Below, piece by piece: positions 1,496 through 58,713 of a stretch of DNA of 64,000 nt; position 1 is the first letter of the stretch; each line of letters opens with the position of its first letter. The position numbers were made by a program, and so were the translations under genes. The stretch is taken from positions 458,476 to 522,475 of the forward strand of contig CAVXYE010000018.1 of NCBI GenBank assembly GCA_963765865.1. The letters are read 5' to 3'. The notes beneath the pieces are model-generated. The model was not told the DNA's origin and ran no database searches. It saw nothing but the letters and a program-made list of their open reading frames with translations. This DNA comes from an uncultured Actinomycetes bacterium. GTDB taxonomy: Bacteria; Actinomycetota; UBA4738; HRBIN12.

Positions 1496-2396
1496 CTAGG
1501 AGCGGGCCTCGAGATCGGGGCGTCGCTCGAGCGCGGCGCCCAACCGATCGAGCGACGGCTCGGTCATCGGTTGCAGCAGCACGATCAGATGGTCGATCCC
1601 GAGTCGCGCGTACGCCTCGATCGCATCAGCCAACTCTTCGACCGACCCCGCGAACTCGTTCTCCTCTGCGGGCGCGTCGACGCCGGGATCGCGAACGACC
1701 ATCCCGACGGTCCTCGCCATCGTTCCGGGGTCGCGACCCTCGTCCTCGAGGGCCTCCGTCGAGAGCGGCGAGCTGCCGAGCGAGCCGGTCATCCGGTACG
1801 CCGTACCACGCCGTGTTCCACGCGTCGGCATGCCGAGCCGCCAGGCGCAGCATCCGTGGTCCCTCCCCCGCGACGAGGATCGGGATCGTGCGGCGAGCAG
1901 GAGGGAACAGCCGGGCGTCGCGCGTCCTGTGGTAACGCCCGGTCACGGTCACGCGCTCGCCTCGGAGCAGCGGGGTGATGATCCGGAGCGACTCCTCGAA
2001 CCGGGCCACCCGGTGGTCCTTCGGGAACCCGAAGGCGTCGTACTCCGGGTCGTGCCACCCCGCTCCGAGCCCGAGGATCACGCGGCCGGCGCTCACCTCG
2101 TCGGCGCTGACGGCCATCTTCGCCGTCAGTCCCGGGCTCCGGAAGCTCGTACAGAGCACGAGGGTGCCGATCTCGACCCGCTCCGTGCTCGCGGCGACGG
2201 CGCTCACGATCGTCCATGCCTCGTGCATCCCCTGGATCGACCCGGCCTCGGTCTGATCGAAGAGATGGTCGAACATCCATACCGAATCGAGGCCCTGCGC
2301 TTCGGCCGCCCGCGCGAAGGACCGGATCGCCGGCCATCCGGGCGTCTCGCCCGGGCCGTCGGCCTCGGCGGCCGGGAGGATCACGCCGATCTTCAC
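1496..2396 (-). pseudogene. LLM-class (luciferase-like) F420/flavin-dependent oxidoreductase; apparent frameshift near 1800
   Basis: N-terminal two thirds in the 1626..2729 frame (GTG at 2396: VKIGVILPAAEADG...GLGAGWHDPEYDAFGFP...). C-terminal third in the 1496..1831 frame (...TMARTVGMVVRDP...DAIEAYARLGIDHLIV), typical of the LLM C-terminus. A single indel joins them. Confidence 0.7.
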
Positions 2397-2488
2397 GGCG
2401 CCGAGTCTAGGTGCGACGTCCCTGCTCGTGCCGCTCGCCCGCCGGATCGTCGTCGACCGCCGAGCTGCGCCTGTGGAACGATGTGGCG

Positions 2489-3229
2489 ATGGGAGCCGAG
2501 CGCACCCCGTACTACCGCGCCGATCTGGCGCTGATCCATCACGAGGGGTTCGCCTTCCATGCCGAAGACTGCGCGCCGGGCATCCTCTCGTTGCTCGAGT
2601 CCGTCCGTTCGCGCCACGGCCTCGTCGTCGAGCTCGGCTGTGGGAGCGGGCTGTTGACGAAGCATCTCGTCGACGCCGGTCATCGCGTGATCGCCACCGA
2701 CGCCTCCCCGGCGATGCTCGACATCGCACGCGAGTACGCCGGCGCCGTCCAGGAGATCCGGCGTCTGACGTTGCCCGACGACCCGATCCCGGCTGCCGAC
2801 GCGATCGTGTCGGTTGGTCACGTCGTGAACTACCTGCCGGACGCGGACGCGATCGAGCGCGCCCTCGTGGCGATGGCGGAGGCGCTCCAACCGGGCGGTC
2901 TGCTCGCGATCGACCTGTGCGACCTGTCGTACGGAGAGGCGAGGTCGGCCCCGTCCACGGGTGGATGGGTCGCGGACGACTGGGCCATCATCACCGAGCG
3001 CTCCGTTCCTTCGCCCGATCGCTTCGTGCGTCAGATGGCGATCTTCATGAAGAACGAGGACGGATCGTGGCGGCGCGACGACGAGCGCCACGACAACGTG
3101 CTGATCGACACCAGCTCGGTGCCCGAGTTGCTGTCCCGCCACGGCGTGCACGCGGATGTCGGGCAGGCGTTCGGAAACGAACGCTTGCCGGAAGGCCTCC
3201 GCACGCTGATCGGGCGTCGGGAGGCGTAG
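2489..3229 (+). CDS. class I SAM-dependent methyltransferase
   Basis: Motif I VVELGCGSGLLT and post-I acidic residue. Start taken at MGAERTPYYRADL, since the upstream part of the ORF is low-complexity read-through. Confidence 0.7.
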   Translation: MGAERTPYYRADLALIHHEGFAFHAEDCAPGILSLLESVRSRHGLVVELGCGSGLLTKHLVDAGHRVIATDASPAMLDIAREYAGAVQEIRRLTLPDDPIPAADAIVSVGHVVNYLPDADAIERALVAMAEALQPGGLLAIDLCDLSYGEARSAPSTGGWVADDWAIITERSVPSPDRFVRQMAIFMKNEDGSWRRDDERHDNVLIDTSSVPELLSRHGVHADVGQAFGNERLPEGLRTLIGRREA

Positions 3230-3239
3230 TCTCGGGCCC

Positions 3240-3449
3240 GTGCTCGGCGAGGAAGAGGTCGTGGTCCTGGACGTGAAGCCGGTCGACCTGCACGGCGTGA
3301 TCTACCGGGACGTGACCGTCACCTTCCCCGACCGGTCGATCGGTCAGGCTCGGCTGGGCCCGGAAGGCGTCCCCACGGATCTCGAGCCGGGCGATGTCGT
3401 GTTGGCGACGAAGGTCGTCAACATGATCGTCTCGCTGCGCCGTCCCTGA
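3240..3449 (+). CDS. small hypothetical protein (69 aa)
   Basis: GTG start. Near-100% G/C at third codon positions over the whole ORF, consistent with real coding. No family recognised. Confidence 0.5.
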   Translation: MLGEEEVVVLDVKPVDLHGVIYRDVTVTFPDRSIGQARLGPEGVPTDLEPGDVVLATKVVNMIVSLRRP

Positions 3450-3464
3450 ACCGGTCGCTCGTCA

Positions 3465-5931: not shown

Positions 5932-6069
5932 GCGTGCTCCTCCCTGACCGAGACTCTGTTCCGGACGCTACCCGAACCGACCGTGCGGACCTCGTCGGTC
6001 GGTTCCCGGCGGCCGATGCATCAGACGCGTAGCGAGGGTTGAGAAGCGGCCTCTCGGAGCGATCGCCCG

Positions 6070-6641
6070 TCACGAGGCGCGCTCGCGCCACTCGCGATCG
6101 AGGATCGCGTAGACGGCCTCGCTCTGCCACTCCCCCTTGAGGTACTCGTTCTCGACGAAGTGCGCTTCGCGGCGCATCCCCAGCTTCTCCAAGACGCGGG
6201 CCGATGCGACGTTGCGTGGTTCGAGCCGCCCGATCACGCGGTGCAAGCCCAGCTCCTCGAACGCGATCGAGAGGACCGCGCGGCCGCCCTCGGTCGCATA
6301 TCCGCGTCCGTGGTGGTCCGGATGGATGATGTACCCGAGCTCGCCGCCTGCGTGCTCCCGGCTGAAGACATCGAGGGTGAAGTCACCGATCACGTCGCCC
6401 GTCTCCTTCAGCTCGACCGCGAGAGCCAGGAAGTCGCCCTCCGCAGACGATCGTCGTCGCCCTGATCTTCCTGTCCAGCGCCTCGCGAACCTGGTCCTCG
6501 GTGCGCGCGTCCCACAACAGGTAGCGCGTCACGTCGGGCGCGGGATTGGTACGCGTAGAGCGATGCGAAGTCGGCCGGCGTGAACGGACGGAGGAGGAGC
6601 CGCTCCGTCTCCACGGAGGACACGGGCTTGCCGAGGTTCAC
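6070..6641 (-). pseudogene. GNAT family N-acetyltransferase (RimJ/RimL-like); two apparent frameshifts (about 6535 and about 6445)
   Basis: Three consecutive frames carry MNLGKPVSSVETERLLLRPFTPADFASLYAYQSRA / DVTRYLLWDARTEDQVREALDRKIRATT / EGDFLALAVELKETGDVIGDFTLDVF...HRVIGRLEPRNVASARVLEKLGM. Confidence 0.65.
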
Positions 6642-8457: not shown

Positions 8458-9456
8458 TCAGACGGCTCGGAGCGGGGCGGGTCGGGTCACGTGCTGGACC
8501 TGCCCGGGGAGCGTCACCACGAAGCGAGCGCCGCCGCCCGGCCGGTCCTCGACCCGGGCGGTCCCGCCATGCAACTCGGCGAACCGCTGCACGAGCGACA
8601 GACCGATGCCCACTCCGCCACGTGCACCCGCACCTTGGCGGAAGGGTTCGAAGATCTCGTCCTTGACGTCGTCGGGCACCCCGGGGCCCTCGTCTTCGAC
8701 GACGACGACCACCCCCTTGTCCCGTTCGGTGACGACCACCTGCACGGCGGTCCCGGCGGGGGTGTGCCGGGCAGCGTTGTTGAGCAGGTTCTCCACGATC
8801 CGCTCGACCTTCGCTCGATCGACGTCGACGAGCATCGGCTCGCTCTCGATCCGGACCGGGTGTCCCGAGAGCGACGGAAGTTCCAGAGCGAGGCGGTCCG
8901 CCAGTTCGCCGACATCGGTGGGCTCACGTTCCGGCTGGAGCTGGCCGCGGCGGAGCCGGTCGAGGTCGAGGAGGTCGTCGACCAGGCGCGACGCCTTCCT
9001 TCCTGCCTGTTCGATCACGCCGTAGAGATCGTTGAGCTCGACGCCCGTCAGCTTGAGCTGGTCGGCGCGGCGGATCGTCTGCATCGCGCCGAGGATGCCC
9101 GCGAGCGGACCTTTGAGGTCGTGCGAGACCGCGTGGAGCAAGGTGTTCTTCATGTCGTTCTGCGCTCGCAGGTCGTCCGAGACCTCCTCCTGCGACTCGA
9201 GCTGCGAGCGCTGGCGCTTCGCATGGTCCCGGATGATGGCGAGGAGCCAGACCACGAACAGGAACACCGCGTACCAGACGAGGGCGTTCCACGACGGAAC
9301 CAGGACGTTCGTCTCGACCGACCGGACATCCGCGAGCTGCATCGCGACGGCGGCGAGACCGGCCACCAGGAAACCCCATGCGCGCCCGAGGTTCCAGGTC
9401 GCGATCAAGATGGGAAGCACGTAGAAGGGCGCGATCGAGACGTTCGGGCCGATCAT
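8458..9456 (-). CDS. sensor histidine kinase (3-TM sensor, HisKA, HATPase_c)
   Basis: H-box LLHAVSHDLKGPL. N, G1 and G2 boxes (NLLNNAARHT, EDEGPGV, GIGLSL). Start set at MIGPNV. An alternative upstream frame (to about 9580, GTG with GAGGA RBS) encodes another TM helix, so the true N-terminus may be longer. Confidence 0.75.
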   Translation of the reverse strand: MIGPNVSIAPFYVLPILIATWNLGRAWGFLVAGLAAVAMQLADVRSVETNVLVPSWNALVWYAVFLFVVWLLAIIRDHAKRQRSQLESQEEVSDDLRAQNDMKNTLLHAVSHDLKGPLAGILGAMQTIRRADQLKLTGVELNDLYGVIEQAGRKASRLVDDLLDLDRLRRGQLQPEREPTDVGELADRLALELPSLSGHPVRIESEPMLVDVDRAKVERIVENLLNNAARHTPAGTAVQVVVTERDKGVVVVVEDEGPGVPDDVKDEIFEPFRQGAGARGGVGIGLSLVQRFAELHGGTARVEDRPGGGARFVVTLPGQVQHVTRPAPLRAV

Positions 9457-9648
9457 GTGAGTCGGCGACACCGACGCCGACGACGAACAGGACGGCCACC
9501 GCGAGCACGTACGCCGGCGGCCGCCCCGAAAGGAACGCTTCCAGCGGAAGCGCCCGCCTGTCGCGATGATCGACGTCCACGGATGAGTCCTCGGCGAGCC
9601 ACGCATCTACCTTGAGTTCGGTAGGCGCCGCAGCCGATGACCGGAAGG

Positions 9649-12537: not shown

Positions 12538-13470
12538 CTACCACCACAGCGACTCCTCGACCCCTCGCTCAGCCGCGGAGAGATCCTCCGCCCAGGCGTG
12601 CGTCGACAGGTACTTCCACCCGCCGTCGGGCAGGAGACACACGATGTCGCCACCGTCGAGCTCTTGGGAGATGCGCTGTGCGACGTGGATCACCGCGCCG
12701 CTGCTGATCCCCGCGAAGATCCCCTCCCGCGCCGTGAGCTCCCTCGTCGCGTGCAGGGAGTCGGCGGCGTTCACCAGGAATTTCCGGTCGATCTGCTCGG
12801 GGTCGAAGATCGGCGGGATGAACCCTTCGTCGAGCGAACGCAGCCCGTACACCAGATCGCCCAGCTCGGGCTCGGCCGCGACGACCTTGATCTGCTCGTT
12901 GTACGCATGGAGCCCGCGCCCGGCACCCGTCAGGGTTCCGCCGGTCCCCATGCCGGCGACGAAGTGCGAGATCGTCGGAAGGTCGCGGATGATCTCCTGC
13001 GCCGTCCCCTTCTCATGCGCGTCGGGGTTGGCGGGGTTCCCGTACTGGAAGGGCATGTAGTACCGGTCGTCGGTCGCGAGCGCGCGCGCGACCTCGATCG
13101 AGCCGTTCGTCCCCTTCGCTCCGTCCGATAGGACGATCTCGGCCCCGAACAATCGCAGGAGGCCGATCCGCTCCTCGCTCGCGTTGTCCGGGATCACCAC
13201 GGTGAGCTTGTATCCCTTGCGGCGTGCCACCATCGCGAGCGCGATGCCCGTGTTGCCCGACGTTGGCTCCAGGATCGTTCGTTCGGGCGTCAGCTCGCCC
13301 GAGCCCTCCGCCGCCTCCACCATGGCGAGGGCGATCCGATCCTTCGTCGAGCCGGTGGGGTTCTGCCCTTCGAGCTTGGCCCAGATGCGGACGCCCGGGG
13401 CGGAGGACATCCTGGGGATGCCGACGAGCGGCGTGTCCCCGATGGCATCCAGGATCGAGTCGAAGCGCAC
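12538..13470 (-). CDS. cysK: cysteine synthase (CysK/CysM family PLP enzyme)
   Basis: PLP lysine motif PTGSTKDRIA. GNTGIALA and SSGA motifs. Confidence 0.8.
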   Translation of the reverse strand: MRFDSILDAIGDTPLVGIPRMSSAPGVRIWAKLEGQNPTGSTKDRIALAMVEAAEGSGELTPERTILEPTSGNTGIALAMVARRKGYKLTVVIPDNASEERIGLLRLFGAEIVLSDGAKGTNGSIEVARALATDDRYYMPFQYGNPANPDAHEKGTAQEIIRDLPTISHFVAGMGTGGTLTGAGRGLHAYNEQIKVVAAEPELGDLVYGLRSLDEGFIPPIFDPEQIDRKFLVNAADSLHATRELTAREGIFAGISSGAVIHVAQRISQELDGGDIVCLLPDGGWKYLSTHAWAEDLSAAERGVEESLWW

Positions 13471-13525: not shown

Positions 13526-13939
13526 TCATCCAAGAACCCACCACGGGGTGTCGATCGTCGTCGAGCCTGGGTCGTTCGCGTCCTCGTACAGGAGCCTGGC
13601 GGCTCGATGACCCGCGTCGCTCAGCATCCACATCCGGGTGAGACCCGCGGCTCGACCGTCCTCGGCGAAAGCATCCAGGAGCTGCTTGCCGACCTTCGTC
13701 GATCGCACCGCCTCCGCCACCTGGAGGCTCGCGAGGAGTAGGAAAGAGCCACCGTCCGGCTGCGAGAAGGTTGAGCCCCACGCGAAGCCGACGACGGTCT
13801 CGCCGTCGGTCGCGACGTAGGCGAAGCCGCGTCCGTCGGCGAGGAACGCCGGGTTGGGGCGGCGCTCGAAACCGCGGAAGGCACGCACCGCGGCTTCGAG
13901 CGCCGCCCCATCGTTCGGGCCGAGCCTACGGATCTCCAC
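13526..13939 (-). CDS. GNAT family N-acetyltransferase
   Basis: 137 aa, acetyl-CoA binding region (VGKQLLDAFAEDGRAAG). Confidence 0.6.
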   Translation of the reverse strand: MEIRRLGPNDGAALEAAVRAFRGFERRPNPAFLADGRGFAYVATDGETVVGFAWGSTFSQPDGGSFLLLASLQVAEAVRSTKVGKQLLDAFAEDGRAAGLTRMWMLSDAGHRAARLLYEDANDPGSTTIDTPWWVLG

Positions 13940-14011
13940 AGGTGGGAGCTTGCCCCAACCGTGGGGGCGGCGCCAGGCTCGACGCGACTACGGGCAGGAT
14001 CGGGATCCGGC

Positions 14012-14975
14012 TCACCGCCAAGGCAGCGCGGCGCGTTCTGCCCAGTAGCGCTCGGGAGGCTGCGCGAGCTCGTTCATCGCCGCGAGCGCATCGTCGGGAA
14101 GCATCACGTCCACCGCCGACGCATTGCTCCGGACCTGCTCGACGGTCACCGCGCCCGACAGGACGACATCGGCCCACGGTTGCGCGTGGACGGCCGCGAG
14201 CGCGACCCGATCGGGCGTCGTCCCGAGCCGGCCGGCCACACCGCCGAGCGGCCCATCGGTCGCCGCGAGCCGACCGTTCGCCATCGCTTCCTTGATCAGG
14301 ACGCCGCGCCCGTCCGCGTGAGCCTCCGCCAACGCGGGACCGGCCGAAGGCTCCAGCACGTTCCAGGTCGACTGAACCGTCGAGAAGAGCGGTTCGCCAT
14401 CGACCCGCTCCTGGAGACCGCGAACGATCGCGTCGGCCTGCTGCGGACCGCTCGTGGAGAACCCGAGGAACAGGCCCGACTCCCGGAGCGAGCGGAGCTC
14501 ATCGAGCACCGCACGATCGTCGAACACACCGCTCTCGATGGTGGCGGAGTGGATCTGGTAGAGCGACAGGTGATCGCCCAGGAGCCGCCGCGACTCCGCG
14601 ATCTGCCGCCGGAGGGCGGTGACCGAGAGGTCCTTCACCTCTTGGACGTCGGCGTCGAGCCTCCATCCGCCCACGTAGGTGTATCCCCACTTCGATCCGA
14701 CGACGACATCGTCCGGATCGCGCGGTGGCGAGCCAGTCGCCCAGGAACGCCTCTGCATCTCCGTAGGAACGAGCCACGTCCACGTAGCGAACGCCGACGT
14801 CGTACGCGGCGTCGAGGACGTTATGGGTGCGCGCCTCCATCGCAGCGCGCGATCGCGCCAGCCCGAGGTCCCGATCACGTCCGACGTCGATGTACGCGGG
14901 ACGCCCGAGCGCGGCCAGCCCGAGCCCGATCCGAGAGACGACAAGCTCTGTTCCCCCGAGCCGTCGACGCTCCAT
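14012..14975 (-). pseudogene. aldo/keto reductase; apparent frameshift near 14700
   Basis: N-terminus MERRRLGGTELVVSRIGLGLAALGRP...DAAYDVGVRYVDVARSYGDAEAFLG in one frame. Remainder (VGSKWGYTY...LSLYQIHSATIESGV...) in another. Confidence 0.7.
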
Positions 14976-16987: not shown

Positions 16988-17569
16988 ATGGGAGCGACCG
17001 AGGTGGACACCGCGACCCAGATCCTCGATGTGGCCGAGCGTCTGGTGCAGGAACGCGGCTACAACGGATTCAGTTACGCCGACGTCGCCAGCGAGCTCGA
17101 CATCTCGAAGGCAGCGCTCCACTACCACTACCCCGGCAAGGCGGAGCTCGGCGAAGCACTGATCGAGCGGTACGCGACGCGGTTCGCGGAGGCGCTCGTG
17201 GCCGTCGACGCCCGCGGGATCGACGCGGCCGAGAAGCTCCGCGCGTACGCGCAGCTGTACGCGGAGGTGTTCCGAGACGATCGGATGTGCTTGTGCGGGA
17301 TGCTCGCCGCCGACTACGCGACCCTGCCCGAGCCGATGCGCGAGCGGGTCGTGCGGTTCTTCGACGACAACGAGGTCTGGCTGACCCACGTGCTCGAAGA
17401 CGGCCGCGCGGCGCGGACCCTGCGTTTCCAGGGACCCGCTCGGAGCGTCGCGCGAACGCTGGTCGGCGGACTCGAGGGCGCGATGCTGGTCGCGCGGCCC
17501 TACAAGGACATCAAACGGTTCCGATCAGCAGCATCGCTGCTGATCGATGGTCTCGCGGTCGAGCGCTAG
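16988..17569 (+). CDS. TetR/AcrR family transcriptional regulator
   Basis: HTH QERGYNGFSYADVASELDISKAALHYHYPGK. Confidence 0.8.
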   Translation: MGATEVDTATQILDVAERLVQERGYNGFSYADVASELDISKAALHYHYPGKAELGEALIERYATRFAEALVAVDARGIDAAEKLRAYAQLYAEVFRDDRMCLCGMLAADYATLPEPMRERVVRFFDDNEVWLTHVLEDGRAARTLRFQGPARSVARTLVGGLEGAMLVARPYKDIKRFRSAASLLIDGLAVER

Positions 17570-17860
17570 GCGCGGGCGGCGCTCCGCGCCGCCCGCCACC
17601 GCGGGGAGGATCGAGACGACGTCGCCGTCCGCGACGGCGGTCTCGAGCGAGCCCAGGTAGCGCACGTCCTCGTCGTTCACGTAGACGTTGATGAAGCGGT
17701 GCAAACCGCCCCCCTCGGCCAGGACGTTCTTCGTGACGCCCGGATACCGTGACTCGAGGTCCTTCAGGACCTCCTCGAGCGTGGCCCCTTCGACGGTCAC
17801 CCGCGCCTCGTCACCGGCGAACTTGCGGAGGATCGTTGGGAGTTTGACGGTCACGGGCAT
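17525..17860 (-). CDS. cysO: MoaD/ThiS/CysO-type ubiquitin-like sulfur-carrier protein with a 20-aa extension after Gly-Gly
   Basis: MPVTVKLPTILRKFAG...HRFINVYVNDEDVRYLG...ILPAVAGG, then the same frame continues AERRPRLALDRETIDQQRCC before the stop. Overlaps the TetR 3' end by 45 bp. Confidence 0.7.
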   Translation of the reverse strand: MPVTVKLPTILRKFAGDEARVTVEGATLEEVLKDLESRYPGVTKNVLAEGGGLHRFINVYVNDEDVRYLGSLETAVADGDVVSILPAVAGGAERRPRLALDRETIDQQRCC

Positions 17861-17875
17861 CGGTTCAGCAACTCC

Positions 17876-18709
17876 TCATCCGGCTCGGGCGGGGACGCCG
17901 CAGAACTGCTCGTAATCGATCAACTCGGTGATCGTCGGATCCTTGCCGCACACCGGGCAATCGGCGTCCCAGCGGATCTTCATCTCTTGGAAGTCCATGG
18001 TGAGGGCGTCGTACAGGAGCAACCGGCCCTCGAGCGTGTCGCCCTCCCCCGTGATGATCTTGATCGCCTCGGTCGCTTGGATCGATCCGATCACGCCCGG
18101 CAGGACACCGAACACGCCACCCTCGGCGCAGCTCGGGACGGTGCCGGGCGGCGGCGGAGCCGGGAACAGGCACCGGTAGCACGGCGTCTCCTGACCGGGC
18201 ATGAACACCGTCGCCTGGCCTTCGAACTGGTAGATCGAACCGTACACGAGGGGCTTGCCCGTGAACTGCGTCGCATCGTTGACGAGGTAGCGGACCGGGA
18301 AGTTGTCGGTGCCGTCGACGATCACGTCGTAGCCCTCGAAGATCTCGAACACGTTCGTCGAGAACAGCAACGTCTCGTGGCCTACCACCTCGATCGTGGG
18401 GTTGATCGCTCGGAGGTGATCGACGGCCGAGGCCACCTTCGAGCGGCCGACGTCGGCCGTGGTGTGCAGGATCTGGCGCTGAAGGTTGGTCACATCCACC
18501 TGGTCGAAGTCCACGATGCCGAGCTTGCCGATGCCGGCGGCCGCCAGGTACATCGCGACGGGGGAGCCGAGTCCGCCGGCGCCGATCACCAAGACCGAGC
18601 TGTCGAGGAGCTTCCGCTGACCCTTGCCGCCGATGTTCGGCAAGATGATGTGGCGCGAGTAGCGTTGCACCTGCTCTTCGGTGAACATCGGCGGCGTTGA
18701 GGCGCTCAT
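17876..18709 (-). CDS. moeB: MoeB/ThiF/MoeZ-type E1-like adenylyltransferase (no rhodanese domain)
   Basis: VLVIGAGGLGSP nucleotide loop. CxxC...CxxC zinc motif. Confidence 0.85.
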   Translation of the reverse strand: MSASTPPMFTEEQVQRYSRHIILPNIGGKGQRKLLDSSVLVIGAGGLGSPVAMYLAAAGIGKLGIVDFDQVDVTNLQRQILHTTADVGRSKVASAVDHLRAINPTIEVVGHETLLFSTNVFEIFEGYDVIVDGTDNFPVRYLVNDATQFTGKPLVYGSIYQFEGQATVFMPGQETPCYRCLFPAPPPPGTVPSCAEGGVFGVLPGVIGSIQATEAIKIITGEGDTLEGRLLLYDALTMDFQEMKIRWDADCPVCGKDPTITELIDYEQFCGVPARAG

Positions 18710-19158
18710 GCGATCGAGAGCTCCTCTTCCGTGATCGCACCGTCCCGGATCCAGAACGAGCGAGCGATCGGATCCGTCCGGTCGGCGAGCGACACGACGA
18801 TGTATCGAGCGTCCGGATAGAACGCGAGCCGCGTGTCCGTCTCGCTCGGGTACGCGTCCGAGTGCGTATGGGAATGGTAGATCGACCAGAGGTCCCAGCC
18901 GCGCTCATCGAGCTCATCGAACACCTTGAGCTGCTCCTTGCCGTCGAGGCGGTAGGTTGCCGGGCTCGCGTCGGCGTTCGTCATCGGGAAGACCTTCACC
19001 GGGACGCCGGCCTCCGCCGCGATCAGACCGCAGCATTCGTTCGGGAATTCGCGGAGCGCCTGCTCCACGATCTCTTTGAAGAGGACGCCGTCAAGCTCGG
19101 TCACGCTTCGTCTCCGGGAGGTCGGCCGGACAGGCGCAGCCGCCTGTTGCAGGTGCAA
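18706..19158 (-). CDS. mec: Mec+/JAMM (MPN) family metalloprotease
   Basis: JAMM motif E...HSHTHSDAYPSETD. 4-nt overlap with moeB. Confidence 0.8.
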   Translation of the reverse strand: MHLQQAAAPVRPTSRRRSVTELDGVLFKEIVEQALREFPNECCGLIAAEAGVPVKVFPMTNADASPATYRLDGKEQLKVFDELDERGWDLWSIYHSHTHSDAYPSETDTRLAFYPDARYIVVSLADRTDPIARSFWIRDGAITEEELSIA

Positions 19159-20208: not shown

Positions 20209-20983
20209 TCAGACCAGGTCCGTCCCCATCGCATGGAACCCCCCGTCGACGTGCACGACCTCACCCGTGATGCCCGACGAGAGGTCCGACAGGAGGAACG
20301 CGACGGTGTTCCCCACCGGGGTCGGGTCCTCCACGTCCCAACCGAGCGGCGCGCGACGGCTCCACGAACCGCTGATCTGATCGAACCCCGGGATGCCCTT
20401 GCCCGCCATCGTCTTGATCGGGCCGGCGCTCACCGCGTTGACGCGGATCCCCTTCGGACCGAGGTCGCGGGCGAGGTACCGCGTGACGGATTCGAGACCG
20501 GCCTTGGCGACGCCCATCCAGTCATAGATGGGCCATGCCACGGTCGCATCGAAGTCGAGCGACACGATCGCGCCGCCGTCGCCCATCGACGGCAGCAGCC
20601 CGACCGCGAGCGCCTTCAGTGAGAACGCGCTGGTCTGCACGGCTGTGGCGACGCTGTCCCAGGGCGTATTCAGGAAATTGCCTCCCAACGCATCTTGGGG
20701 GGCGAAGGCGATCGCGTGGAGGAAACCATCGAGGCGTCCCCATCGCTGTTGGAGCTCTTCACAGACCGCGGCGATCTGCTCGTCGGAGTTCGCGTCCATC
20801 TCCAGGACGTCCGGCGTCGTGGGGAGCCGCTTGGCCGTCTTCTGGGTGAGGCTGACGGTGCGTCCGAAGTTCGTCAGGACGATCTCCGCGCCCTGCTCCT
20901 GAGCGGATCTTCGCGGCCGCGAACGCGATCGACTGCGGCGTGAGCACGCCGGTGATCAGCAGCTTCTTCCCCTCCAGCAGCAT
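20209..20983 (-). pseudogene. fabI: enoyl-[ACP] reductase FabI/InhA; apparent 1-bp insertion near 20905
   Basis: MLLEGKKLLITGVLTPQSIAFAAAKI then out of frame. Removing one C restores ...AQEQGAEIVLTNFGR... joining the InhA-like C-terminal ORF (SAGPIKT...VHVDGGFH). Confidence 0.8.
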
Positions 20984-31941: not shown

Positions 31942-32418
31942 TCAGCTGCCGGGCTTGAAGACCATGTCCGCGACGACCAGGACCAGCACGACCACGTCGA
32001 TGCGCGAGATCGGCGAAGATCCGTTTGATCCGCCGCTGGATCTCGGGGTCGGAAGGATCGCGCTCGGCTGCGAGCTTCCCGAGTCGCTCGGACTCCGGTC
32101 CCAGGAATCCGGCGCCGGTGGCGATCGTGGCCGCGATACCGGCGAGCCCGAGCAGCACCCAGGTATCGGTGAAGTTCCAGGCGCTGACCGCGACGATCCA
32201 CACCCCGAGGACCAACACGGCGATCGCCGAAGGCGTGATCAGCCGCTTGCCGAGATCCCCGATGTCCTTGGCGGTGGCGGCCAGACGCGCCGGGTCACCC
32301 TCCCCCATCACCTTCGTCGCGAGGGCCTGCGCGTAGATCGCGCTCCCCACCCACGTGATCGCCGCGAGGACGTGGAAGAACTTCAGCGTGTCGTAGTACC
32401 CGGTCGAGATGGCCAGCA
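31942..32418 (-). pseudogene. DUF2269-like small membrane protein; apparent frameshift near 32000
   Basis: GGGGGAG RBS. Three TM helices then the C-terminal helix (ISRIDVVVLVLVVADMVFKPGS*) in another frame. Confidence 0.5.
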
Positions 32419-32478
32419 TCGCTCCCCCTTCGGGCGGTTCGCGGTATCTCAGCGCAGATCCCCTCCGGGGGCAAGCGT

Positions 32479-36307: not shown

Positions 36308-38490
36308 TCAACGACGGGTGAGCTCGCGCACCCGGGCCGCTGCCGTGTGGGCGCGACCGACGGCGGCCTGGTCCGGCCGTCGTCCGGGTTCGCCGAACCG
36401 CGCCAGCTCGAACGTCCGTACGACGATCCCCGCCTCGCCCAGGACCTCGGGCGGGAGGTCGGGGTCGGCCGGGAGCGACGCCAGGAGCTCGCTCGGGGTT
36501 TGGCTCGGCCGGCGCGGGTGACCCGCGGCCGCGAGCGCATCGACGAGCGCTTCGAACGCCCGACCGGCGGCGTCGGGGGGGCGCGGCGCTCGCGATCGGC
36601 GGCGGCGGCGCCGTCCATAGCCGATCGCGAGCGCCGCGCCCCCGAACGCGAGCACGGCGATCGGCCACCATCGTCCGACGACCGGCGCCGCGGCGAGGAA
36701 CGCGTGCACGCCCCGGCCGACCGCGTCCTTGAGCGGCGCCGGCACGTGCTCGCGGATCAACCGCTGGATCGAGGCGATGACCTCGGCGCCGATCAGGCTT
36801 CCGGCGACCGGTTCGGCGGGAGGGACACCGAACGTCGGGTCGTAGGGCAGCCAGCCGACGCGCGGGTAGTAGACCTCCACCCACGCGTGCGCGTCGGCCT
36901 GGCGCACCTCGAAGTACCCGGTCAGCGGGTTGCGATCGCCGGGCCCGTACCCGGTCACGATCCTCGTCGGGATGCCGTCCGCGCGGAGCAACACGGCCAT
37001 CGCGCTCGCGATGTGCTCGCAGAAGCCCCGTCGGGTCTCGAACAGGAAATGATCGACCGCGTCGACGCCCGCGGGCTCGCGCGGGACCGAGAGGTCGTAG
37101 CGCGTGTGCTCTTGGATCCATGCCTGGACGCGGACGACCGCCTCCTCCTCGCTGTCGGCGTCGCCGACGATCCGCGCGGCGAGGTCGCGGTCGCGCTGCG
37201 GCAGCTCCGCCGGGAGCTGCAGGTACCGGGCGAGCGATGGCGCGTTCGTGTTCGGCCGGGGCAGCAGCCGCAGGAGCGGTGTCGGCACGACGGGCACCTG
37301 CGACACGACCGAGTACACCATCCCCTCGTCCAGCAGGAAGGACGAGCGGATCGAGCCGTACCGGTCCATCTGCAGACCGCTGCCCGGGAAGTAGACCTTC
37401 TCCGCGCGCGCGGCAGCGAACAGGACGTTCGGTTGCGCTTGCGACACGTAGAACGTCTGCACGACTTCGTTGGAGAACGGCGGCGGGAGCGGGGCCTCGA
37501 TCGGCGGGTACCCGGGTTCGAAGGACTGCGTGTCGGCGTCGAGGCTGAGTGCGGACGAGCCGGTATCGGAGGCGGTCCAGAGCGAGCCATCGTAGGTGTC
37601 GAAAGCCTCCGCACGCCAGAGCTCGGGCTGGTCCGCCCGGACGCGGAACACGATCTGGTCCGACAACGCGCCTCGCGCCCGGAGGTCCATCGTGGAGCTG
37701 AACCCCGGATACCCGAGCGGGGCGAAGTCCACGACGCCGTCTCCGCCGGCGCTCGGGAGTCCCGGGTTCGTCACGGCGTCGGTCGAGGACGAGGTCGGCG
37801 TTCGGTGACCCAGCGTGAACGGAGGCGTCCGCACGAGGGACGCGGGGAGCCTCGGCATCGCGAGGAAGACCGCGCTCCCCAGGCACAGGGCGGCGATCGC
37901 CCGCGACGGCCGCGGAACGGACGCCCGCGAAGCGCGGCCGCGGGGCCTCGACCGTCGTCCGGATCGCGAGCGGGGCCGCGTACCGGTCTGGCCGGGGCGC
38001 GGCCGACAGCCAGAGCCAGGCGGCGGCCAGCGCCGCCCAGAGACCCAAGATCCACACGAACGAGGTGGTGAGCGCCAAGGCCCCGGCGGCCGCGATGAGG
38101 GTCGTGGACGACGTCATCGAGAACGCCAGGTCGCGCCGGCGCGGAACGTCGAACGCGTGGAGGACCTGGACCCACAGGAACAGGCCGGCGAGCGGGACGC
38201 GCGCGGCATCCACCGTCGTGATCGGCGCTCACCGACTGGAGGAACCCCATCGTTGCGACGAGGAGCCCCGCCGCCAGCAACACCTTCAGCACGATGCTGG
38301 GTCGAGCTCGACGGACGTACGAGAAGGCATATCCGGCCGGCGCGAGGACGAGCGCGGTCACGGCGACGACGCCCGTCACCGCACCCTGCAACGCCAACGC
38401 GATGATGCCGACCTCCACCGCGAGCGCGACGACCACGCGCATCGCGATCGAGTCTTCGGGCGCGGCCGGTGACCGTCTCGTCGGCCTCAC
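36308..38490 (-). pseudogene. transglutaminase-domain protein with DUF3488-type N-terminal membrane region (TgpA-like); two or more apparent frameshifts
   Basis: N-terminal TM helices in the 37771..38490 and 36291..38213 frames. Transglutaminase core (FCEHIASAMAVLLRADGIPTR, DAHAWVEVY) in the 36308..37858 frame. Confidence 0.75.
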
Positions 38491-39674
38491 GCCCGGACCT
38501 CCTCACGGACATCGCCTGCGCGAGATCGCCCGCCGGGGCCCCATCGGCGAACGTCGGCGCCGGCCGCGCTCAGCGCTTCGGCCACGCGGCCGGCCTCGCC
38601 CGCGCCCGGCTCGGCGAGCACGCACACCACCCGGGGGACGAGGCGCACCAGCCGGCGGACGTCGCCCTCCAGCCGAGGACGCTCCCCGCGACCCCAGATG
38701 GGGAAGGCGATGACGAGCGTCTGGATCCCACGCAGGTCCTCCGGCCCGAGACCCGCCAACACCTCCTCGAGCGGAACACCGCTCGGCTCCAGCTTGGCGA
38801 GCCAACGGAACATCTCCGACCGATCGGCTCGCGGGAGAACGTCGATGCCCAGGCCGGGGCGCGCGGCGATCAGCCGCGCGCCCTGGCCGTGCGCCGTCGC
38901 CGCGTCCAGCACGGACGCGGCGACGGAGCAACAACGATCGAGCGGCGTCCACGCGTCGCCCTCGTCGCGCTCCGTGTCGACCACGACCACGAGACGCCGG
39001 GTCCGCTCCTCCTCGAACTCCCGCACCATCAGCCGGCCGTGGCGCGCCGTCAGCGCCCAGTGGACATGGCGCATGGGGTCGCCCGGCCTGTACTCCCGGA
39101 CGCTGAGGTAGTCGGGTCCCTGCCCGCGACGCGGCGCCTCGTGCACGGCTCGGGCGTTCGTCGCGATCGGCTCGACGAACGACAGGGTTCCGAGCGGGAA
39201 GACGCGCGGCAGCACGAGGGTCCGGGCCTCGAGCTTCGCTCGGACGCGCCGTTCGGCCACGCCGAACGGCGCGTCCGAGCGAAGCTCCGCGCCGACCGTG
39301 AGGATCTCGCCGCGCCGGCGAGGTGTCCGCAACGTGGTCGCCTCGACCCGTTCGCGTCGCCGGATCGGCGGCAGGAGCGTTCGGACGGGCTCGAGATGCG
39401 TGTCACGAACGGTGACGTTGCGTCGGACGCCGCGCGCGGTTCCCCGCACCCGCAACTCCACGATCGTCGGCACGCCTTGCTCCGCCTCCTCGGGTGCGGC
39501 GAGCTCGATCGAGAGCCCGCGGAGGGCGGCGAACGGAAGCACGAGACCCGCGGCGAGCGCGCCGAGGAGCAACGCCGCGATCACGTAGAGCCATCCGGCC
39601 TGGACGTTCGTCCCGATCAGGAACAGCACCGCGGCGCCGAGCAGCAGACCGGCGGCGCGTTTGCGCAGGCGCAT
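38487..39674 (-). CDS. DUF58 domain protein (vWA-like, MoxR partner)
   Basis: Start MRLRKRAAG 5 nt after the moxR stop. YLSVREYRPGDPMRHVHW motif. Confidence 0.8.
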   Translation of the reverse strand: MRLRKRAAGLLLGAAVLFLIGTNVQAGWLYVIAALLLGALAAGLVLPFAALRGLSIELAAPEEAEQGVPTIVELRVRGTARGVRRNVTVRDTHLEPVRTLLPPIRRRERVEATTLRTPRRRGEILTVGAELRSDAPFGVAERRVRAKLEARTLVLPRVFPLGTLSFVEPIATNARAVHEAPRRGQGPDYLSVREYRPGDPMRHVHWALTARHGRLMVREFEEERTRRLVVVVDTERDEGDAWTPLDRCCSVAASVLDAATAHGQGARLIAARPGLGIDVLPRADRSEMFRWLAKLEPSGVPLEEVLAGLGPEDLRGIQTLVIAFPIWGRGERPRLEGDVRRLVRLVPRVVCVLAEPGAGEAGRVAEALSAAGADVRRWGPGGRSRAGDVREEVRA

Positions 39675-45848: not shown

Positions 45849-47043
45849 GTGTCGGTCGGAACCGCCTTCTATCCGCGGCAGCGAGAGCTGAACCGCAACG
45901 AGGTCTGGGGTGAATGGGCCGGGTACTTCGCCGCCCAGGTGTACGCCGACTTCCACGACATCGAGTACAGCGCGATCCGTGAGGCCGCCGCGGTGATCGA
46001 CACGAGCCCCCTCTACAAGTACGTCGTCTCGGGCGCCGACGCCGGCAGGCTGTTGGATCGGGTCGTCACGCGAGACATCTCGAAGCTCCAGGTCGACCAG
46101 GTCATCTACACACCCTGGTGCGACGAGGACGGGAAGGTCCTCGACGACGGCACGGTGACCCGGCTGGCGGCGGACGAGTACCGCGTGACCTCCGCGGATC
46201 CGTGCTACCGCTGGTTCCTGTTGAACGCGACCGCGCTGGACGTGGACGATCGCCGACGTCACCGAGGATCTGGGAGCGCTCGCGCTGCAGGGGAAGCTCA
46301 GCAGGGACGTGCTCGAGGCCGCGACCGGCGAGGACTGGACCGATGTGCGCTACTTCCGTCACCGCCGGACCTCGATCGCGGGTGTCGATGTCAGCGTGAC
46401 CCGCACCGGCTACACCGGCGACCGCGGGTACGAGCTGTGGATCCCGGTCGCGGGAGCGCTCACCGTCTGGGACCGCCTGTTCGACGCGGGCGAGGCGTAC
46501 GGGATCTTCCCCGCCGGGATCCGAGCGCTCGATGTGGCCCGGGTGGAAGCCGGACTGATCCTGATCGACGCCGAGTACACGAGCGCTCGCCACGCGATCA
46601 GCCCCGAACAGAACTACTCCCCGTTCGAGATCGGTCTGGGGCGTCTCGTGGAGTTCGGGAAGGAAGCGGAGTTCACCGGGGAACGAGCGCTCAAGGCCGA
46701 GCGCGCGGCGGGTGGTCCGGCGCGGCGCCTCGTCGGGTTGGAGCTGGACTGGGCCGGGATCGAGGCGATGTTCGCGAAACACGGCCTCGCGGCGATGATC
46801 TCGCCGTTCGTCGACCGCGCGCCGGTCCCGGTCTACCGGGAAGGACGGCAGATCGGCCGCGCGACCTCGATCACGTGGGGGACGACGATCAAGAAGATGG
46901 TCGGCTTCGGTTCTCTCGACAAGGAGCACGAGAAGCTCGGCTCACGGGTATCGGTCGAGTACAGCGTGGAGGGCGAACGCGGCAAGGTGGCCGCGACCGT
47001 GGTTCCGCTGCCGTTCCTCGACCTCCCACGCAAGCGGACCTGA
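45849..47043 (+). pseudogene. aminomethyltransferase (GcvT/DmdA-like, folate-binding) family protein; apparent frameshift near 46255
   Basis: GTG with GGAGG RBS. GcvT N-terminal domain then frame change into the 46309..47043 ORF (RTGYTGDRGYELW...). Confidence 0.7.
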
Positions 47044-55212: not shown

Positions 55213-55284
55213 CGCGTCCGGTCGCGGGAACCGCTCTCCAGGTCCGTATCGGGCGACGTCTTCGCCTCGCCGGACCCCGCGCTC

Positions 55285-56472
55285 CTACCGCCACGCGGCG
55301 GGCAGCGCCGGCCATACGACCTCGTTCGCACCCAGCCACGCGGCCAGCTCGTCGATCGCGCGCTTCGCCGGCGGCCAGTCCGACGGCGTCACGACGTGCT
55401 CGGCGTAGATCGCGTTCACGCGAAGCACGCCGGCCTTCCGGTCGTAGAGCGGGTCGATCCGCCCGATCAGTCGGTCACCCCGGAGGATCGGGAGGACGAA
55501 ATACCCGAACTCGCGCTTCGCCTTCGGCACGTAGATCTCCAAGCGGAACCGGAAGTCGAACAGGCGCTCGGTACGCTCCCGATCCGAGATCAGATCGTCG
55601 AAGGGCGAAAGAGCGTCGTGCGGCCACGGAACGTCGTGTCCAACAGATCGCGGTGCGCGACCCACCGACCCGGGAGGCCCTCGACCTCGATCGGCACGAT
55701 CAGCCCGTCGCGCAGGTGACGGCGGATCGCGGTCTCCCGCATCGGAACCGGCCCGTCGAAGAGCGTGCCGATCCGCTCCAGCCGTTCGAGACCGCGGGCT
55801 CGCAGCTGCCGATCGACGAGCTCGGTGGCGATCTCGGACGCCGGAAGGGCGGGAACGCGTGGGAGGGACCGTGACGCCAGATCCCAGATACGCTGCTGGC
55901 CGTCGCGGCCGACGATCATCACCCGGCCCTGCAGCCACAGGATGTCGAGCAGCATGGGTACGTTCTGCCCTTCATCGTTCCAACCGCCGGTCTGCCAGCC
56001 CTCGGCAGCCCGATTCTCCAGGTCCCGCGCCCGGAGCGGACCACGCCGTCGCAGCTCACCGATCACGTACCGGACGAAGGCGTCGTTCGCCTCCAGCCAC
56101 CGTCGGACGTACTCGCGGCGCTTCCAGGTCCCGTGGGGGTAGCGCCGCATCGAGATGCGGTGGATCGGGAGGTCGGCCGTCGGCACGATGTGCGCCCAGT
56201 ATTCGAACAGCGCGCGCTCGCCCCAGAGCAGCCGTTCGAGCTCGGCGACGCGGAACCGCCGGCCGAGCCGGCTGAACAGGACGAGTTGCTCCGTCCGGGC
56301 GACCGCCGAGGTGGGATCGATCTGCACCTCGCCCAGGCGTCGCACGACCTCCTCGATCGACCCGGGTCGAGGAACGTCGAGGAGCTGCCCCGTCACGGCG
56401 AGCTGCCGCGCCCGCCGTCGCGAGACGTGGACCGGCTCGGGCATCGAGGTCATCGGGCTCACGGAGGCCATC
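55285..56472 (-). pseudogene. YcaQ-family winged-helix DNA-binding protein (crosslink-repair DNA glycosylase-like); apparent frameshift near 55620
   Basis: N-terminal 3/4 in the 55590..56639 frame. C-terminal FDFRFRLEIYVPKAKREFGYFVLPIL in the 55285..55938 frame. Start uncertain. Confidence 0.55.
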
Positions 56473-56553
56473 GAGTCCCGGAGGCTACCGCCCGACGGCG
56501 ACGGCCTCCTGGAGAACCGTTCTGCCTCCCCGTCCGTACACCCACGGAGTACC

Positions 56554-57135
56554 GTGCTGAGAGTGAAGATCGACGACCCGGGATCCGATGCAGCGCTCAT
56601 GGCGGAGTTCGCCGCCCGCGAGGAGCGCGCTGCCGGCACGCTCTTCGACCGGTTCGCGTCGAGGATCTACGGGCTCGGCGTGGTGATGCTGGGCAACCCC
56701 CAGGCGGCCCAGGATCTGGTGCAGGACACCTTCGTGAAGCTCTGGCGGACCGCCGAACGATACGACCCGCAACGCGGGCGGCTCGAGACGTGGGTCCTGC
56801 TCACCGCCCGGTCGCTCGCGATCGACAGCCTGCGGCGTCGCGTGCTGGAATCCCGTTCGCTGCAGGCGATCGGGATCCAGCCCGAAGACGACCCGGAGCC
56901 GCTCCCGGACGAGCGCGCGGCGCTCACGGACCTGTCCGCCCGCGCCCGGCGCGCGATGGCGTCGCTGTCCCCCGAACAGCGCTCCGCCCTCGAGCTCGCC
57001 TACTTCGGCGGCCGAACGACCGCCGAAGTGGCCGCGCTCGAGGGCATCCCCCAGGGCACCGTGAAGACGCGGATCCGCGCCGCGCTGCTCCGCTTGCGCG
57101 ACGAGATGGCGAAGGACGCCGACCATGACGTGTGA
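56554..57135 (+). CDS. ECF-type RNA polymerase sigma factor
   Basis: Region 2 (LVQDTFVKLWR) and region 4 (AEVAALEGIPQGTVKTRIRAA). GTG with GGAG RBS. An alternative ATG lies at 56599. Confidence 0.75.
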   Translation: MLRVKIDDPGSDAALMAEFAAREERAAGTLFDRFASRIYGLGVVMLGNPQAAQDLVQDTFVKLWRTAERYDPQRGRLETWVLLTARSLAIDSLRRRVLESRSLQAIGIQPEDDPEPLPDERAALTDLSARARRAMASLSPEQRSALELAYFGGRTTAEVAALEGIPQGTVKTRIRAALLRLRDEMAKDADHDV

Positions 57136-57862
57136 CGAGGTCCGTGAGCTGCTCCCCGAGCACCTGCTCGGCACCCTCGAGGGTCCCGAGGACCTCGAGG
57201 TCCGCCGGCACCTCCGAGGGTGCAGCACCTGTCGCGAGGAGCGGATGAAGCTCGAGGACGGGGTCGCCGCGCTCTCCCGCGCGGTGCACGATCAGGAGCC
57301 GCCCGCCGAGCTTCGGGACCGCGTCCTGCGCACGCTCGACGAGGAGTGGAACGAGGCCGGACCGCTCACCGCGACGGTCCGGCGGCATCGCGACCGCTCG
57401 CCGTGGCGAGCGGTCGCGGCCGCCGCTGCGGTCGTGCTCGTTGCCGGCTCGCTCGCGTTCGGCGCGACCCAGGCCCGTCGGGCCTCGGTCGCGACCGCCG
57501 ACGCCGCGAGTTACACCAATCTCCTCAGGTCGCTCGGCGGCAAGGAATTCAGCGTCGGCGAACTCCATCCGACCGGAGGCTCCACCTTCGATGGCCAGGT
57601 CCTGGTGTACGAGGGAGACGCATCCAAGGGGTGGGGCTCCTGGGCGATCGTCTTCGTCAAGGCGCCCGGCTACGTCGGAGACGCCACCGCGACGCTGATC
57701 GGCGCGGACGGCGGAGCGTTGGCGCTGCCTCCGCTGCGGGTCAGCGATGGCGAAGCCCACAGTTGGATCGTCACGGGCGACGATCTGAGCGGGTACGATC
57801 GCCTGACGATCACGACGCCGGATGGCAACGTCGTGGCGACGGGTGCCATCCACCCGGCGTGA
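57125..57862 (+). CDS. zinc-finger (HxxxCxxC, ZAS-type) anti-sigma factor with one TM segment
   Basis: ATGA overlap with the sigma gene. CDEVRELLPEHL...RHLRGCSTC. TM WRAVAAAAAVVLVAGSLAF. Confidence 0.65.
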   Translation: MTCDEVRELLPEHLLGTLEGPEDLEVRRHLRGCSTCREERMKLEDGVAALSRAVHDQEPPAELRDRVLRTLDEEWNEAGPLTATVRRHRDRSPWRAVAAAAAVVLVAGSLAFGATQARRASVATADAASYTNLLRSLGGKEFSVGELHPTGGSTFDGQVLVYEGDASKGWGSWAIVFVKAPGYVGDATATLIGADGGALALPPLRVSDGEAHSWIVTGDDLSGYDRLTITTPDGNVVATGAIHPA

Positions 57863-57917
57863 ACCGGGCACCTTCCCCGCCCGTAGAACCTCGAACCGGC
57901 TAGCGGAGGGAGCGATC

Positions 57918-58376
57918 ATGCACACACGGACCTTCGTCCTATCCAGCGTCGCCGCGGTGGCGCTCATCACGCTCGCGGCGTGCTCGTCGAGCAGCTCGAC
58001 GGCGAGCTCCGGCGAGCGAGCTCGAGCTCCGATCTCGGGCAAGATCACGATCGGCTCGGATCAAGCGAACGACCACGGCACGGAAGACGCGACCGGCAAG
58101 ACAACGTTCGAGATCGAAGCCAGCAACGACAGCAGCGGCTACTTCTTCAAGCCGACGATCCTGCAGGGCTCCGGCGGGCAATCCATCACGTTGGAGATCA
58201 AGAACGACGGGTCGGTGCCGCACAACTTCTCGATCACCTCGATGAACGTGAACGTCACGGTCGAGCCGGGCGCGTCGCAAGAAGTGAAGGTCACGTTCCC
58301 GCAGACGGGGACGGTGGAGTACTTCTGCAGCTTCCACCACGCGCTCGGCATGGCGGGCGAGCTGTCGGTGGCCTGA
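57918..58376 (+). CDS. cupredoxin (plastocyanin/azurin-like type-1 copper) lipoprotein
   Basis: GGAGGGAG RBS. Lipobox LAAC. Copper ligands H...C-x2-H-x4-M (FCSFHHALGM). Confidence 0.7.
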   Translation: MHTRTFVLSSVAAVALITLAACSSSSSTASSGERARAPISGKITIGSDQANDHGTEDATGKTTFEIEASNDSSGYFFKPTILQGSGGQSITLEIKNDGSVPHNFSITSMNVNVTVEPGASQEVKVTFPQTGTVEYFCSFHHALGMAGELSVA

Positions 58377-58382
58377 TCGCCC

Positions 58383-58713
58383 TTAGGCGAGCGACGATCG
58401 GCAGCGGCTCCAGAGCGACGGACAGCTCGTCGGCGGACAGCTCCGCGTGGAGGCCGTCGATCAGCTCGGCGATCTCCGGGCTCATGACCGCGAGGACGTG
58501 AGCGCCGCTTCGCGACGCGAAGGTGTGTGGAGAGCCGCGCGGCACGACGAAGAACTCGCCTGGAGCGACGCGCTCCCGTGAGCCGTCCACGAAGACCTCG
58601 AGCTCGCCGTCGAGGCAGATGAAAGCTTCCTCGCCCGCGTGATGGATATGGAGTGGCGCCTGATCCCCGTCGTACGGGTCCAGATGCCAGTCTCGGATCA
58701 GGAAATCCGCCAT
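58383..58713 (-). CDS. cupin domain protein (3' end uncertain)
   Basis: HIHHAGEEAFICLDGE cupin motif. The listed ORF would overlap the cupredoxin by about 85 bp. A +1 frame gives a TAA at 58383-58385, which is the preferred end. Confidence 0.5.

Follow-up and report, generated by a model that had tools for sequence, protein, structure and literature searches.

Many disrupted reading frames in an actinobacterial genome bring to mind reductive evolution of the Mycobacterium leprae type, in which pseudogenes are shared within a lineage, carry nonsense mutations and deletions, and evolve under relaxed selection. Ordinary genes are also split by the single-base insertions and deletions (indels) that Nanopore and PacBio assemblies retain as consensus errors, which the IDEEL test addresses; the textbook error of this kind is a deletion or a length error within a homopolymer (PMC9262707). 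In soil metagenomes assembled with metaFlye from Oxford Nanopore reads, only 56.8% of proteins reach at least 90% of the expected length (PMC13087279). A further source of frameshifts was described in the Hapo-G paper, where polishers (Pilon and Racon) create them by mixing haplotypes in heterozygous regions; the cases are mainly diploid eukaryotes polished with short reads, and the tool is recommended for metagenome assemblies too (PMC8092372). Here, we examine the frame breaks in a 64-kb stretch of DNA with 69% GC (part of contig CAVXYE010000018.1; hereafter, the window), whose nearest genomes are metagenome-assembled genomes (MAGs) of uncultured soil Actinomycetota. About 21 of its roughly 65 genes are frame-broken, with about 25 of the indels falling inside these 21 genes, and this share of about one third is in line with the 56.8% figure. 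Comparison with other assemblies suggests, with a probability of about 0.9, that the breaks are consensus errors of long-read metagenome assembly and not mutations in the organism.

The breaks resemble known Nanopore and PacBio errors in their form, as single-base indels that split ordinary genes. Unlike the textbook long-read error, they comprise insertions and deletions at a ratio of 27:2 and lie mostly outside runs. As in the Hapo-G problem, errors occur where two haplotypes differ, the extra bases of the window falling on single-nucleotide polymorphisms (SNPs) between strains with both alleles kept; unlike in that case, the haplotypes would be those of co-existing bacterial strains, and the step at fault would be the assembler consensus or Medaka. 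With the M. leprae-type pseudogenes they share the many disrupted frames in an actinobacterial genome, but the window breaks are not shared within the lineage, include no nonsense mutations and affect genes on which selection is not relaxed. The programmed +1 frameshift of the prfB type has its canonical motif in the prfB gene of the window and in none of the other breaks.

Frame breaks and their absence from related assemblies

For comparison with the window, 13 contigs from short reads and 11 assemblies from long reads were used, all from the same species (95–99% identity); they cover positions 1–62778. A genome scan with Lon led to the short-read MAG contig L001 (90% identical), a metagenome scan with TgpA to the short-read contigs L081–L083 (96–98% identical), and exact look-ups of small intact proteins (ThiS, SoxD, SmpB, DUF2277 and a protein from a 69-aa open reading frame (ORF)) to many contigs that are 95–99% identical. 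Exact matches to four other proteins of the window (ThiF, 277 aa; the run-on Lon ORF, 928 aa; Fpg, 278 aa; ABM, 101 aa) were also sought, and none was found. The short-read set includes JGI Ga... and k141_... contigs, and the long-read set is made up of eleven assemblies from ENA (ERZ250395xx and ERZ25039464), whose contigs reach 1.5 Mb and are named in the style of Flye (contig_N). All relatives were aligned at the DNA level, and the gaps were clustered into an inventory of indels.

The first-pass annotation of the window held that about 20 genes carry single-base frame disruptions, with a high GC content at third codon positions (GC3) on both sides of each break. The disruptions are real. 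In a GC3 frame plot with codon-position segmentation, coding segments on one strand meet in different frames at all the places listed, and GC3 is indeed about 0.9 on both sides. Pfam profile coordinates continue over the break in MFS_3 (10–167 then 168–385), Pyridoxal_deC (9–176 then 175–297), ABC2_membrane (5–127 then 134–208), GCV_T (4–120 then 129–244) and the AlkZ-like profile (1–231 then 240–328), and syntenic homologous ORFs match two abutting frames at the ABC-2, lon, drrA, drrB, MFS_3, decarboxylase and TgpA genes. Alignment to all relatives places 27 window-specific single-base insertions (at 1415 (uncertain), 1756, 6444, 6539, 6794, 9456, 10241, 14723, 20909, 24688, 26287, 28412, 29189, 29882, 31882, 32011, 33209, 34988, 35078, 35462, 37897, 38223, 38535, 46247, 56454, 58005 (uncertain) and 58418) and two deletions (38508 and 55609, of which only 55609 is uncompensated). 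Every firmly listed gene has an indel pinned by DNA alignment, and the break positions first given lie within about 45 nt of the aligned indels. The three sites proposed in the pyridoxal phosphate (PLP)-dependent decarboxylase gene (34988, 35078 and 35462) and the two or more in the TgpA-like gene (37897 and 38223) were recovered, and the genes named only as possibly affected (rdgB, the histidine kinase, MFS-1 and a cupin) are all hit (10241, 9456, 31882 and 58418, respectively).

The alignment also adds events to those listed before, namely a +1/−1 pair in the DUF58 gene (38535 and 38508), a probable insertion in the cupredoxin gene (58005), and intergenic or start-codon events (1415, 28412 and 56454). 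The DUF58 pair was invisible to frame analysis because its two indels compensate each other and the gene length stays normal. Sites 864 and 3234 were dropped as window-specific errors, since short-read contigs share the state of the window there and the variation is natural and intergenic; site 8430 was dropped after more relatives were added.

None of the in-gene indels of the window was found in the short-read contigs that cover them, and they are also missing from nearly all long-read relatives. Recurrence is limited to long-read assemblies, which vary from site to site: six of the insertions are found in one other such assembly each and a further two in two of them, with none in short-read contigs. 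Correction of the indels yields ORFs of the lengths seen in the relatives (FabI 257 aa, Lon 780 aa, GNAT 189 aa, RdgB 201 aa, the aldo/keto reductase 320 aa, and others). The eleven other long-read assemblies carry private single-base indels of their own, with 138 extra and 55 missing bases (extra bases being about 2.5 times commoner), at densities of 0.04–1.48 per kb compared with about 0.47 per kb in the window; such dependence on assembly and coverage is a trait of long-read consensus errors. The breaks in these assemblies affect other genes, with Lon split in L162, L184 and L187, DUF885 and AIRS in L164, and MoxR in L181. Short-read contigs differ from the window only by indels that are in frame, compensated within a few bases, or intergenic, and one of them (L175) shows zero gaps over a 6.5-kb alignment. 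In seven genes, compared as whole corrected ORFs with relatives of 86–97% identity, the ratio of nonsynonymous to synonymous polymorphism (pN/pS) was 0.127 downstream of the first break and 0.134 upstream of it, and no substitution creates a premature stop codon in the corrected genes. The absence of the breaks in relatives, the restoration of ORFs, the private indels elsewhere, the unchanged selection and the lack of nonsense mutations all support the earlier proposal that these are sequencing or assembly indels and not true pseudogenes, and we endorse the caution that it urged on any pseudogene call in the window.

Coincidence of extra bases with strain SNPs

The extra base differs from both of its neighbors at 20 of the 25 resolvable sites, and the longest run involved is GGG extended to GGGG. 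At 11 of 27 sites (41%), two SNP alleles stand side by side, compared with 3.2% of 20,000 simulated random insertions (P = 3e-10). This automated test was based on exact 16-mers and treated observed and simulated insertions alike, with one rule and one set of relatives. Counted by eye and with merges of two adjacent SNPs included, the pattern extends to 18 of 28 sites, for which the first estimate of the chance rate was 3.6%. The same tandem-allele pattern is present in 56 of the 138 private insertions of the other long-read assemblies.

These observations point to a strain-mixing artefact of the consensus at strain-variable positions. The sample would have held at least two co-existing strains. 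Where strains differ by a SNP, aligned reads can show the difference as an insertion with a matching deletion; if the assembler or polisher were to accept only the insertion, the substitution would become a +1 indel. Judging by the contig_N naming, by how large the contigs are and by which relatives ENA and GTDB contain, the window and its nearest relatives seem to derive from soil metagenomes of the Microflora Danica long-read type, sequenced on Nanopore, assembled with Flye and polished by a single round of Medaka. Several GTDB neighbors of the window belong to the Microflora Danica long-read MAG set, and the ERZ assemblies would be linked to the same project. The Microflora Danica long-read MAGs were built from Nanopore reads alone, by Flye assembly followed by a single Medaka round, and microdiversity was named as a limiting factor (PMC12313526). 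On balance, we favor the view that a large share of the residual frameshifts in strain-mixed long-read metagenome assemblies may be SNPs turned into +1 insertions, with the alleles in tandem, rather than random noise.

Several points weigh against this account of the window. Error status is deduced from comparison with other assemblies rather than from reads, and the sequencing platform and pipeline are deduced from contig names, contig sizes and relatives. The relatives are 95–99% identical, so any single site could hold a real private mutation. At 9–16 sites, only a single allele is present among the relatives; these may be plain low-coverage indel errors rather than products of the strain-SNP mechanism. 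A run-length miscall is compatible with the change at 26287 (GG to GGG) and 38535 (GGG to GGGG), and possibly at 1756, 29882 and 58418.

Alternative explanations

Genuine pseudogenisation would imply about 25 real frameshift mutations in a genome with decay under way. The high density of frame breaks, about one gene in three, would suit such a history, as would the few insertions that the window has in common with one or two other assemblies, which are expected of segregating alleles. However, the breaks are missing from all short-read contigs and from nearly all same-species assemblies, every other long-read assembly has its own different set, and the shared insertions involve different assemblies at different sites, fitting a recurrent artefact rather than a haplotype; it is unlikely that they are real segregating null alleles. 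The usual mutational spectrum is deletion-biased, whereas the window has 27 insertions, 2 deletions and zero nonsense mutations. Selection as measured by pN/pS is unchanged downstream of the breaks, the essential gene fabI is among those broken, and the extra bases duplicate SNP alleles, all of which make decay very improbable. Programmed ribosomal frameshifting or transcriptional slippage could restore the proteins in vivo, and one true site of this kind, the programmed +1 site of prfB, does exist in the window. The breaks, however, lie at arbitrary positions in about 20 unrelated genes without a slippery or Shine–Dalgarno (SD)-like motif, and the extra bases are conserved in no relative; we regard the probability of this explanation as negligible.

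Among artefactual origins, long-read homopolymer errors had been favored by the first-pass annotation. Indels in homopolymers are the typical Nanopore consensus error (PMC9262707), and a minority of sites in the window do extend a run (26287 and 38535; possibly 1756, 29882 and 58418). Against classical homopolymer-length miscalls as the main cause, the best-supported correction removes a base unlike both neighbors in 20 of 25 cases, no run exceeds four bases, nearly every event is an insertion, and SNPs coincide with many of them, which leaves this cause improbable. Deliberate editing had been offered as the other possibility. Deliberate or random single-base edits in an otherwise correct sequence would account for events that are nearly all +1 insertions of a base unlike its neighbors and are spread over the window. 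They would not account for extra bases that sit on natural SNP sites in 11 of 27 cases against the 3.2% expected of random insertions, for the same error signature in 11 public assemblies, or for the recurrence of some window insertions in these assemblies, and we give them hardly any weight. Long-read consensus error at strain-variable positions is the reading that we retain.

Implications for annotation

There is no biological novelty in the window. Its interest lies in annotation: about one third of its genes would be miscalled as pseudogenes, truncated proteins or fusions (for example, "Lon" and "MFS" ORFs of 928 and 877 aa, respectively), and such errors are passed on to the pseudogene counts, pangenome presence/absence calls and protein databases derived from MAGs of this kind. 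An out-of-frame stretch is hidden at normal length in at least one gene (DUF58), and compensated pairs, such as those in DUF58 of the window and in DUF2269 of a relative, slip past length-based checks such as IDEEL. That the errors concentrate at strain SNPs points to an inexpensive diagnostic and to a way of repairing them. If the tandem-allele mechanism is general, the frameshift density in such MAGs would track microdiversity and not coverage alone, same-site errors would recur in independent assemblies, and many errors could be detected and repaired even in the absence of short reads, through a search for XY at positions where X or Y is present in the population.

Sites between 1 and 30 kb

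The strand is given in brackets after each position. The extra base at 1415, in the intergenic region between the ABM and luciferase-like monooxygenase (LLM) genes, is absent from nine of nine relatives; in the short-read contigs, however, an opposite indel nearby accompanies it, and the difference is either an error or natural variation. In the LLM gene (about 1496–2395), the extra base at 1756 (−) is absent from both short-read relatives and from six of seven long-read relatives; Bac_luciferase profile positions 2–214 lie in one frame, and the ORF is continuous once corrected. The GNAT gene (6070–6641) contains two extra bases. The one at 6444–6446 (−) is absent from six of seven relatives, and the one at 6539–6540 (−), absent from all seven, places both alleles of a C/G SNP in tandem (GGGCGCGGG in the window versus GGGCCGGG or GGGGCGGG in relatives). 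With both corrected, the ORF encodes 189 aa, the same as in the relatives. Near the 3′ end of the PKD/Big_9 protein gene, the extra base at 6794 (−) is absent from seven of seven relatives (CCCGTCCGA versus CCCGCCGA or CCCGTCGA), and the corrected ORF has 557 aa.

About 40 codons into the histidine kinase gene, 11 of 12 relatives, the short-read contig L195 among them, lack the extra base at 9456–9458 (−). In codon 5 of rdgB (Ham1 family), the extra base at 10241 (−) is likewise absent from 11 of 12 relatives. The window has CCGTCGGCGG there and the relatives have CCGTGGCGG or CCGTCGCGG, with a core of GTCGGC compared with GTGGC or GTCGC, and the corrected ORF has 201 aa as in the relatives. 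The aldo/keto reductase gene, with an extra base at 14723 (−) that both available relatives lack, gives Pfam matches that begin only at profile position 59 when uncorrected and an ORF of 320 aa, the same as in relatives, when corrected.

The extra base in fabI at 20909–20910 (−) is absent from five of five relatives. The correction proposed at first was the removal of one C from a CC run, but the relatives keep the CC, and the extra base sits elsewhere: the coding strand GCGA[A/G]ATCC is written as GCGAAGATCC in the window, whereas four relatives have GCGAGATCC and one has GCGAAATCC, so that AGA or AAA stands against AAGA in the window. The site encodes AAARSAQEQG in the four relatives and AAAKSAQEQG in the one, and the corrected ORF has 257 aa. 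In the ABC-2 permease gene, the extra base at 24688 (−) is absent from five of five relatives, and homologue matches in two frames abut at 24633/24692. The extra base in lon lies at 26284–26287 (−), between the AAA+ module and the protease domain, and is found neither in 11 of 11 relatives nor in L001; CCCGG and CCGGG are merged into CCCGGG in the window, and the corrected ORF encodes 780 aa.

Three events fall in the drrAB-like region. The first, at 28412–28413 (+), lies just 5′ of the drrA-like start codon in a non-coding or start region and is absent from six of six relatives (GTTCGTGATGG in the window versus GTTCTGATGG or GTTGTGATGG). The second, at 29189–29190 (+) in the drrA-like ABC ATPase gene, carries both alleles of a G/C SNP and is also absent from all six; high-scoring segment pairs with homologues change frame at 29189, and the corrected ORF has 337 aa. 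The third, at 29882–29885 (+) in the drrB-like ABC-2 permease gene, is absent from five of six relatives and splits the ABC2_membrane profile; correction gives an ORF of 280 aa.

Sites between 30 and 64 kb

Near the 3′ end of the MFS_1 gene, the extra base at 31882–31885 (+), absent from six of six relatives, abolishes the stop codon, and the ORF continues to 32926; it has 877 aa in the window, 542 aa when corrected, and 528 aa in relatives. The DUF2269 gene has an extra base at 32011 (−) that five of six relatives lack, and in a tblastn search the intact protein of a relative matches residues 1–136 in one frame and 136–158 in the next. The homologous gene of the long-read assembly L185 (positions 13860–14336 of ERZ25039567 contig_36515, corresponding to window positions 31943–32419) carries two compensating single-base errors, one of which it has in common with the window (32011); a 22-residue stretch is out of frame, with SSRPSATLLTPRSSGGSNGSSP for KLAAERDPSDPEIQRRIKRIFA, and the protein length is normal. 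In the MFS_3 transporter gene, the extra base at 33209 (−) is absent from three of three short-read and four of six long-read relatives, and the MFS_3 profile is split.

The PLP-dependent decarboxylase gene is hit three times. In gene order, the first extra base, at 35462–35463 (−), is absent from 10 of 10 relatives and separates Pfam positions 9–176 from 175–297; the window has CCCGCGTC (core CCCGCGT), and the relatives have CCCGGTC or CCCCGTC. The second, at 35077–35078 (−), places both alleles of a T/C SNP in tandem and is absent from four of four short-read and four of six long-read relatives. The third, at 34988 (−), does the same with a C/G SNP and is absent from four of four short-read and six of six long-read relatives.

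Both extra bases in the TgpA-like transglutaminase gene are absent from 11 of 11 relatives: the one at 37897–37899 (−) is a merge of two haplotypes, and a second lies at 38223–38226 (−). The corrected ORF has 726 aa, compared with 710–727 aa in relatives. At the 3′ end of the neighboring DUF58 gene, a compensated pair spans 38508–38538 (−), with +1 at 38535–38538 and −1 at 38508, and 10 of 11 relatives lack the insertion. Nine residues are out of frame (GGRSRAGDV for AGDLAQAMS) with the gene length kept and the true residues in the adjacent frame, so that the C-terminus reads ...WGPGGRSRAGDVREEVRA in the window and ...WGPAGDLAEAMSRREVRA in relatives. In the GcvT-like aminomethyltransferase gene, the extra base at 46247–46248 (+) is absent from 15 of 15 relatives and splits the GCV_T profile; the window has GGACGATC (core GGACGAT), and the relatives have GGAGATC (14) or GGACATC (1).

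The AlkZ/ycaQ-like gene differs in having a missing base, at 55608–55609 (−) within a multi-SNP patch, where nine of nine relatives have one base more; its corrected ORF has 389 aa. Directly 5′ of its start codon, the extra base at 56454 (−) is absent from eight of nine relatives. The cupredoxin gene has a probable extra base at 58005 (+), absent from eight of nine relatives, and is only partly restored by correcting this site alone. It adjoins a GAGCTC-type short repeat (58005–58040) in the N-terminal part of the gene, where relatives differ by length indels of 11–23 nt, and the error call is uncertain because this adjacent repeat is natural low-complexity variation. The extra base in the cupin gene at 58418–58421 (−) is absent from 10 of 10 relatives, and the corrected ORF has 114 aa, compared with 109 aa in relatives.

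Gene content, prfB and strain variation

According to Pfam scans, the gene content is that of an ordinary actinobacterium. It includes a luciferase-like monooxygenase, peptidase S9, GNATs, a histidine kinase, rdgB, RNase PH, a ThiS/ThiF/JAB cluster, fabI, lon, two ABC-2 exporters, MFS transporters, a PLP decarboxylase, a MoxR-DUF58-TgpA operon, arginase, amine oxidases, soxBDAG, an AlkZ-like glycosylase, an extracytoplasmic function (ECF) sigma/anti-sigma pair, tmRNA, smpB, ftsEX, prfB and secA.

The prfB gene at 61424–62527 (−) has a canonical programmed +1 frameshift site at 62456–62462, with CTT TGA C after the SD-like AGGGGG. Reading continues in the +1 frame past this site, and gene callers report only the 337-aa downstream ORF in relatives. 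No other frame change in the window is genuine, and the prfB site was missing from the first list of breaks. The tmRNA gene at 58742–59092 (−), with the tag peptide ANDEFALAA, adjoins smpB (59261–59728); the indel inventory contains no window-specific indel inside the tmRNA gene.

Two further contigs, L115 and L137 (ERZ1370068), are homologous to the window at 26.8–47.8 kb with about 90% identity and show 400–600 gap openings over 13–14 kb; they seem to come from a related organism's long-read assembly that is much noisier and has had practically no polishing. Gene content varies among strains at 14.0–16.5 kb of the window (11.4–15.4 kb in L161, L164 and L165). A BNR-repeat protein adjoins the aldo/keto reductase in the window, L162 and L163, and in its place L161, L164 and L165 have a histidine kinase, a response regulator and a DoxD-Rieske protein. 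Other cassette differences are an HNH_3 or DUF2461 gene between the cupin gene and smpB in some relatives, and an RrnaAD methyltransferase between soxB and the AlkZ-like gene in L169 and L170. In the stretches 12538–13470 and 17525–19158, genes for ThiS-like (111 aa), ThiF/MoeZ-like and JAB (Mec-like) proteins are grouped, with a PALP cysteine-synthase-like gene about 4 kb off, an arrangement that may resemble the mycobacterial CysO-CysM-Mec sulfur-carrier pathway for cysteine.

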